Source of the DNA: Escherichia coli
GTDB lineage: Bacteria; Pseudomonadota; Gammaproteobacteria; Enterobacterales; Enterobacteriaceae
NCBI RefSeq assembly: GCF_003334765.1
Contig: NZ_QOWT01000012.1
Reading direction: 5' to 3' (one strand)
Length of the DNA: 64,000 nucleotides
Of the stretch, positions 60,673 to 61,051 are shown in pieces (the stretch's first letter is position 1; every line of letters starts with the position of its first letter). The notes beneath the pieces are model-generated. The model did not search any database. It had not been told where the DNA came from and saw nothing but the letters and a program-made list of their open reading frames with translations. The position numbers were made by a program, and so were the translations under genes.

Positions 60673-60683
60673 TAATAAAAGCA

Positions 60684-60710
60684 CGCCACCTTCGGGTGGC
60701 GTTGTTTTAT
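60684..60710 (+). terminator. Rho-independent terminator after tamAB-ytfP
   Basis: Hairpin acgccacc-ttcg-ggtggcgt followed by TGTTTTAT. Confidence 0.75.
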
Positions 60711-61051
60711 GCGATGTATCTCGCGATTTTTTTTTGTAACTTTTCCATCTTTTGCTTTTCTCTCCGAGCCGCTTTCCATATCTGCAATCGCATAAAAAAC
60801 TCTGCTGGCGTTCACAAATGTGCAGGGGTAAAACGGGGGCACGCTTTGAACGGTGAGTATGAGTGAGGTCGGCTAACTTCCAGCAAGTGGCTATGAACAG
60901 CAAAATGGTGGTCGGGTTTGCTTGTTCTTACCGTTCAAGCCTTGCAACCGCTGAGAATAATGATGGTGGAATAGAGAGTTTATTTATCGCGGGCATAAAA
61001 AAACCCTTACTAACCGAAGCCCGGCGTTCAGGGTTATTGCGCTAGAAGAAC

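Follow-up and report, generated by a model that had tools for sequence, protein, structure and literature searches.

The 379-bp spacer between ytfP and ppa in the E. coli window analysed here (the whole 64,000-nt stretch of contig NZ_QOWT01000012.1, assembly GCF_003334765.1) is the chpSB-less allele of a known multi-state locus and very probably the scar of a chpS-chpB cassette (MazEF/PemIK type) that formerly stood at this position and decayed. As judged by alignment, the spacer retains ~267 bp of cassette-derived DNA (60710-60978), made up of a ~123-bp chpS-upstream region and a 144-bp stretch with a degenerate chpB fragment. On sequence grounds it lacks every feature of a functional chpSB module that was tested and has every tested feature of a pseudogene relic, and it is incapable of encoding toxin or antitoxin. 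The case is one of ordinary toxin-antitoxin decay, with no new mechanism or system, and the chpBS / esiB / neither polymorphism of the locus, hence the absence itself, has already been published. A description of the chpB relic was not found in the literature searched, the coverage of which was incomplete, so an earlier description may exist.

Organization of the ytfP-ppa locus

The gene order across this region of the window is tamB (56549-60328), ytfP, the 379-bp spacer, ppa and ytfQ (61892 onward). An earlier sequence-only reading of the window had placed ytfP and ppa in convergent orientation with 379 bp between them, and the coordinates agree with this, the spacer being exactly 60673-61051. 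The order ytfP - chpS - chpB - ppa, which that reading had given for K-12, is likewise correct: MG1655 falls in the chpSB-bearing class, and a published table gives ytfP//yzfA - chpS - chpB - ppa. The features of the locus are as follows.

60331-60672, plus strand: ytfP, gamma-glutamylcyclotransferase family protein, left boundary gene (ORF; 100% identical to the RefSeq-annotated ytfP product, WP_001219160.1 context)
60683-60709, plus strand: ytfP intrinsic terminator, an 8-bp GC-rich hairpin (stem-loop 60683-60702) followed by a T-tract (terminator scan)
60710-60834, plus strand: left arm of the former chpSB cassette, including a second hairpin and T9 (100% identical to the ytfP-chpS spacer of CRE10 up to GGGGTAAAACG)
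60835-60844, plus strand: left deletion junction and 10 nt (GGGGGCACGC), replacing ~313 bp of the intact allele (alignments)
60845-60969, plus strand: first part of the chpB relic, corresponding to nt 19-145 (codons 7-48) of chpB (local alignment, blastn, 73% identity)
60964-60974, plus strand: internal deletion junction, TGGTGG and then AATAG (the relic reads GATGGTGG followed directly by AATAG)
60979-61051, minus strand: right arm, common to all alleles, with a ppa terminator-like hairpin and U7 at ~60996-61035 (97% identical to the chpB-ppa spacer of CRE10)
61052-61582, minus strand: ppa, inorganic diphosphatase, right boundary gene (ORF; RefSeq annotation of identical loci)

When positions 60300-61400 were used as a megablast query against 5426 complete E. 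coli genomes, two main allele classes were found. One is collinear with the window, and the other, to which K-12 MG1655 belongs, has annotated chpS and chpB between ytfP and ppa. The spacer was aligned with the occupied allele of E. coli CRE10, a phylogroup-A-like strain that bears chpSB. The first 162 bp of the spacer (60673-60834) are 100% identical to the ytfP-chpS DNA of CRE10, and the chpB-ppa DNA of the same strain has 97% identity to the final 73 bp of the spacer (60979-61051). The allele-specific part is only 144 bp (60835-60978) and stands where CRE10 has 652 bp.

The arms of the spacer are informative as well. In all genomes that bear chpSB, the left-arm DNA precedes chpS, and it is ~71% identical to the chpS-upstream region of Enterobacter asburiae and Lelliottia. 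Occupied and unoccupied sites within Enterobacter differ by an insert that starts right after the T-tract of the ytfP terminator, and the first ~100 nt of this insert are ~71% identical to positions 60677-60777 of the window. Because the DNA of 60710-60834 is missing from the unoccupied Enterobacter sites, and because the insert both begins after the T-tract and gives the ~71% match, the left arm can be taken to have come with the cassette. Among the ytfP neighbourhoods taken from 80 species-representative genomes, unoccupied spacers (many Citrobacter, Enterobacter, Klebsiella and Kluyvera species, and Salmonella diarizonae) measure 93-190 bp and consist of two terminators and short filler. 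The spacer of the window is thus 2-4 times longer than the unoccupied sites of related genera.

Both terminators proposed in the sequence-only reading were recovered. That of ytfP is strong (fold of the region, -24.5 kcal/mol; z = -4.1) and conserved among Enterobacteriaceae, and it is the sole part of the left side of the spacer that is present in nearly all of the 80 related loci. The possible ppa terminator corresponds to the terminator-like hairpin with U7 on the minus strand, the folding energy of which is no better than that of shuffles, though all alleles and Citrobacter retain the hairpin. The right arm as a whole is partly conserved in Citrobacter and Raoultella. Downstream of the ytfP terminator the scan also returned the second hairpin with T9, at 60710-60735. 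This hairpin varies strongly among Escherichia lineages (L003-L009; GCGATGTATCTCGC, GCGATGCCCCTCGC and GCGAGACGACGCGT), and the variants, all of which keep the form of a hairpin plus T-run, follow lineage and not the chpSB or relic allele.

A promoter scan returned no promoter-like site in the spacer, although the scan is weak and also misses the real chpSB promoter in the intact allele. No Rfam match was obtained for the spacer; the sole match at E <= 1, an S15-leader at E = 0.31, lies inside the ppa coding sequence and was taken as chance.

The chpB remnant

The allele-specific DNA is homologous to chpB. Local alignment of the 144-bp segment with the 652-bp chpSB segment gave a score of 78, compared to 18.4 ± 2.2 (max 27) for 500 shuffles, the match being in the 5' part of chpB. 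A blastn search with 60825-60990 against a 28-Gb E. coli collection matched annotated chpB in ~3098 genomes, K-12 MG1655 among them, with 72.4% identity over 125 nt (E = 2e-7). When ChpB was used in tblastn, the best and sole match in the window was the relic, inside the spacer in frame +1, reading VG-stop-LPASGYEQQNGGR. At the protein level the match reached only E = 0.005, because the relic is frameshifted, and nucleotide alignment was required.

A multiple alignment of the relic with chpB from 11 taxa was used to place it. The relic is identical to E. coli chpB at 91 of 125 positions (73%), and the ancestral relic inferred by parsimony has 77% identity to Escherichia chpB. The chpB genes of other genera show 50-60% identity to the relic, and an origin from the chpB of another genus was rejected on this ground.

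Some of what had been said of the spacer has therefore to be revised. The sequence-only reading called the site empty and saw in it nothing that resembled ChpS or ChpB; by tblastn, blastn and the shuffle test, 60845-60974 is a clear chpB remnant, and the spacer keeps this degenerate fragment together with the left arm of the cassette. The two ORFs which it listed, 60655-60903 (minus) and 60863-61045 (plus), are both present and, lying in the wrong frames, are indeed unlike ChpS and ChpB, but the same does not hold for the DNA underlying them. A homologue of the pair is thus found within the spacer at the DNA level for chpB. With ChpS, tblastn gave no match in 60673-61051, its best matches in the window being chance ones elsewhere, and in the alignment chpS is wholly deleted. 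The claim that the spacer is without a K-12-type chpS-chpB pair stands, there being no functional chpSB at this site in the window.

The lesions are of several kinds. The ~313 bp missing on the left comprise 50 bp upstream of chpS, all of chpS and codons 1-6 of chpB. The deleted 50 bp, which in CRE10 read GTTTCCTGTAGCACCGTGAGTTATACTTTGTATAACTTAAGGAGGTGCAG, include the palindrome GTTATAC-TTT-GTATAAC and a ribosome-binding site, and this region is accordingly absent from the window, as is a gene for the ~83-aa AbrB/MazE-type antitoxin ChpS upstream of the toxin at this locus. A full-length ORF with a start codon for the ~116-aa PemK/MazF toxin is absent too, and of chpB there remain only nt 19-145 and the final 5 nt. 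Within the remnant there are two in-frame stop codons (TGA at 60854-60856 and TAA at 60874-60876) and two 1-nt indels, and the start codon is absent. Read in three frames, the relic gives FER / VG-stop-LPASGYEQQNGGR / LLVLTVQALQPLRIMMVE-stop, to be compared with FERGDIVLVGFDPASGHEQQGAGRPALVLSVQAFNQLGMTLV...E-stop in ChpB.

The internal deletion is precisely placed. In intact chpB, which ends in ...TGGTGGAATAA, the hexamer TGGTGG occurs twice, at nt 140 and nt 341, a distance of exactly 201 bp (67 codons). The junction in the relic lies exactly at this 6-bp direct repeat, with 201 bp removed, and the AATAG that follows is the last 5 nt of chpB (AATAA in K-12). Since the direct repeat is found at both ends of the deletion, the junction is as expected of replication slippage or a microhomology deletion.

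Compared to chpS-chpB (chpBIK) of E. coli K-12, a member of the MazEF/PemIK family, the allele of the window thus has the same ytfP-ppa position and the same upstream and downstream arms. It differs in lacking chpS, the chpS-proximal upstream region, the start codon and the C-terminal two-thirds of the toxin, and in carrying stop codons and frameshifts.

Distribution and age of the relic

Intact chpSB was present in 3098 of the 5426 complete E. coli genomes (57%), and the relic with the same junctions in 2324 (43%), including BL21(DE3) and C41(DE3). The two sets are essentially disjoint and together make up almost the whole collection; it follows that no second chpSB copy in the relic genomes is detectable by megablast. 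Over the relic there is no RefSeq (PGAP) annotation in nearly all genomes. Plasmid-borne copies accounted for 3 of 3101 chpSB matches in the E. coli collection.

The entire 144-bp relic, junctions and lesions included, also occurs in E. coli A37, in the SCPM-O-B-8794 lineage (L007) and in E. albertii. The identities to the window are listed below; those of the relic rest on 144 bp, which gives comparisons of divergence a large sampling error.

E. coli A37 (esiB allele): relic 93.8%, adjacent tamB/ytfP 98.4%
SCPM-O-B-8794 lineage: relic 95.8%, adjacent tamB/ytfP 91.8%
E. albertii: relic 87.5%, adjacent tamB/ytfP 90.1%

By these figures the divergence of the E. albertii relic appears close to that of the species, and the relic of A37 appears more diverged than its neighbour genes, as neutral DNA would be. 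Because the four relics (window, A37, SCPM-O-B-8794 lineage and E. albertii) share junctions and lesions, we infer that the relic arose once, before the split of E. coli and E. albertii.

The flanking DNA behaves differently from the alleles that it encloses. Left-arm variants are distributed by lineage rather than by allele: the window is identical to CRE10, L007 with the relic resembles L008 with the intact allele, and A37 resembles E. whittamii. Flanks that track lineage point to recombination close to, or up to, the junctions. Modern chpB alleles are 97-98% identical (2-3% apart) between Escherichia species, compared to 8-9% divergence of the neighbouring genes. The relic differs from intact chpB by 23-27%, whereas the flanks of the two alleles differ by 0-3% within one lineage, and a simple deletion in situ would consequently need a very old relic and flanks homogenised by recombination.

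Two single genomes deserve mention. FDAARGOS_1250 has an IS1A copy in the ytfP-ppa spacer (L085, ~960-1730), the remaining sequence being 100% identical to the window. HH45 (NZ_CP116411.1; L084, 1360-1500) was considered as an intermediate allele and rejected as a probable assembly artefact. Its 512-bp spacer has ~130 bp of implausible C/G-rich sequence, followed by 101 nt of 100% K-12-type chpB fused to the 3' end of the relic, and the chpB segment is called a partial PemK/MazF pseudogene by PGAP. The HH45 sequence looks like two alleles scrambled into one consensus, probably through sample mixing or as an artefact of polishing.

The esiB allele

In the account of the locus given by Pastorello et al. 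2013 (mBio 4:e00206-13, PMC3735183), the site carries esiB, chpBS or neither in 15%, 53% and 32% of 47 genomes, respectively, and short direct repeats around esiB are noted. In the terms of that account, the window has the 'neither' state, with esiB and chpBS both absent. In the present collection esiB, which encodes a SEL1-repeat protein that binds sIgA, was found in 188 of the 5426 genomes (3.5%), all within the relic set, and 39% of the genomes had neither esiB nor chpSB. The passages of Pastorello et al. 2013 (PMC3735183) that deal with the locus treat 'neither' as absence and do not mention a chpB remnant there, whereas in our analysis both the 'neither' and the esiB alleles carry the relic.

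The esiB allele (A37, L003; esiB at 2483-3955) is a ~1.63-kb insertion between two diverged copies of the ytfP terminator hairpin. In A37 these copies are located at 2334-2371 and 4001-4040 (GCCACCTTCGGGTGGCGTTGTTTTAT and GCCACCTGCGGGTGGCGTTATTTTTT), and the chpB relic is downstream of the insertion, from which it follows that esiB entered an already scarred site and not one holding chpSB. The window itself does not have the esiB allele, as it has only one copy of the terminator and its spacer is too short for a 1.47-kb gene.

Origin of the spacer

One reading of a chpSB-less strain would be that the site is genuinely empty, a never-occupied ancestral spacer into which K-12-type strains later gained chpSB. 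The lack of a ChpS or ChpB ORF and of any PGAP annotation agrees with this, as does the published account of the locus, in which both modules are given as absent (Pastorello et al. 2013, PMC3735183, as far as its description of the site goes). Yet the sole allele-specific 144 bp are homologous to chpB and share the 5' and 3' ends of the gene, the spacer exceeds unoccupied sites of other genera 2-4-fold in length, and its left arm is cassette-associated DNA, which together leave this explanation next to no credence. We give equally little weight to a recent clean deletion of a modern K-12-type chpSB within the lineage of the strain. Flanks that match those of chpSB-bearing CRE10 at 100% (left) and 97% (right) identity, and an internal junction at a microhomology typical of spontaneous deletions, are what such an event would produce; however, what survives of chpB has only 73% identity to the modern gene, whose alleles are 97-98% identical even between Escherichia species, the same relic structure is found in E. 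albertii and another species-level lineage, and 43% of E. coli genomes carry it. It is also very improbable, if slightly less so, that the remnant is kept for some function, whether as an sRNA, as antisense RNA or a decoy for chpB/pemK-type transcripts entering the cell, as the coding sequence of a small protein (ORF 60863-61045, 60 aa) or as a part of ppa/ytfP termination. Persistence since before the E. coli / E. albertii split, occurrence in 43% of genomes and the overlap of the 60-aa ORF with the remnant could be read in its favour, but this ORF is out of frame with chpB, there is no Rfam match and no promoter-like site (by a scan that misses the real chpSB promoter too), IS1 has inserted in the spacer of FDAARGOS_1250, and the relic has diverged at least as much as adjacent coding DNA (87.5% vs 90.1% identity in E. 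albertii and 93.8% vs 98.4% in A37).

A more serious competitor, although still a rather unlikely one, concerns which of the two alleles is the derived one. The relic may be older than the present cassette: a chpB-like module would have decayed in the ancestor of Escherichia, and intact chpSB, then the derived allele, would have been re-acquired through homologous recombination in the conserved flanks. What the window sequence itself represents would be the same under either history. The gap of 23-27% between relic and chpB, set against 2-3% among intact alleles and 8-9% for neighbour genes, suggests a recent spread of the intact cassette. Similar cassettes at the same site in several genera, the three plasmid-borne copies in the E. 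coli collection and the flanks that follow lineage instead of allele are consistent with it. On the other hand, the chpB genes of other genera are far less similar to the relic than that of Escherichia is, which would require a closely related donor; the low divergence of the intact gene is also explained by purifying selection; and neither a donor nor mobility machinery was found.

According to the decay of a resident cassette, which we prefer, toxin activity would have been lost before the antitoxin, the simplest cause being the in-frame 201-bp slippage deletion, which removes the C-terminal two-thirds of the toxin and would leave a 49-residue stub without two-thirds of the PemK/MazF fold. 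The antitoxin would then have become dispensable, and a second deletion would have removed chpS; the order of the two deletions is one that we infer. The remnant would since have drifted neutrally, functionless and presumably untranscribed, between two convergent terminators, and the intact and relic alleles would have coexisted in Escherichia since before the split of E. coli and E. albertii.

A comparable case is the chromosomal ccdO157 module of E. coli, which occupies a fixed intergenic site. It is reportedly polymorphic among strains, with lesions that inactivate the toxin and with degraded remnants. Its decay is said to have been read as the loss of a module under no strong selection. 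The kind of event would be alike in the two cases, with the toxin family being CcdB there and MazF/PemK here. The ccdO157 module reportedly shows many independent recent lesions, in contrast to the relic of the window, whose one deletion architecture predates the species and is common to E. albertii.

In strains described as chpBS-less, including BL21(DE3) and esiB-positive ExPEC, the site is not clean but contains an ancient remnant of chpB that lacks annotation, and calls of presence or absence in pangenome and toxin-antitoxin censuses hide a pseudogene history. The relic would also be an example of safe toxin-antitoxin loss, with the toxin truncated at a microhomology and the antitoxin deleted. 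It is conceivable, though doubtful, that the intact/relic dimorphism is an ancient trans-species polymorphism, maintained from before the E. coli / E. albertii split by balancing or frequency-dependent selection on the MazF-type module. Such a balance might set, for example, a benefit in phage defence or anti-addiction against a cost of toxicity, with recombination tight at the junctions keeping the flanks lineage-specific.

The site in other Enterobacteriaceae

Homologues of chpSB are found at exactly the same site in five Escherichia lineages, Lelliottia, Enterobacter asburiae, RIT691, Pseudocitrobacter and a Kluyvera genomospecies, with 63-78% amino-acid identity. From these comparisons the ytfP-ppa spacer is a recurrent cargo position, at which chpSB has decayed at least three times independently. 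A site with repeated gain and decay could act as a natural time series of chromosomal toxin-antitoxin loss without host killing.

Relics were observed in two further species. Citrobacter sedlakii NBRC 105722 has a separate chpB relic (L027, 3930-4062) with codons 63-76 and 81-107 in a 341-bp spacer, the left arm of which is ~75% identical to that of E. coli. In Enterobacter cloacae DSM 26481 a chpS relic adjoins ppa (L032, 5552-5668) and comprises codons 1-31 and upstream DNA, with 70-76% nucleotide identity to several chpS genes. The rest of that spacer consists of ~1.7-1.8 kb of unrelated small membrane-protein-like ORFs, which also occur in L050, L034 and L053.

Unrelated genes, 0.5-3.4 kb in extent, occupy the spacer in other species. 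Cargo of this kind is present in Citrobacter youngae, Salmonella arizonae, C. portucalensis and a Pluralibacter MAG (L015, L016, L017 and L054, respectively; 3843 onward). Examples are a 375-403-aa ORF starting MSNIVYLKLIGEQQGDISDG, a 669-aa ORF with the signal-peptide-like start MKTRQLITLTGIVAFSGG and a 526-aa ORF. In the Pluralibacter MAG, two small ORFs next to each other (5798-6121 and 6175-6471) are possibly a toxin-antitoxin pair of another kind.
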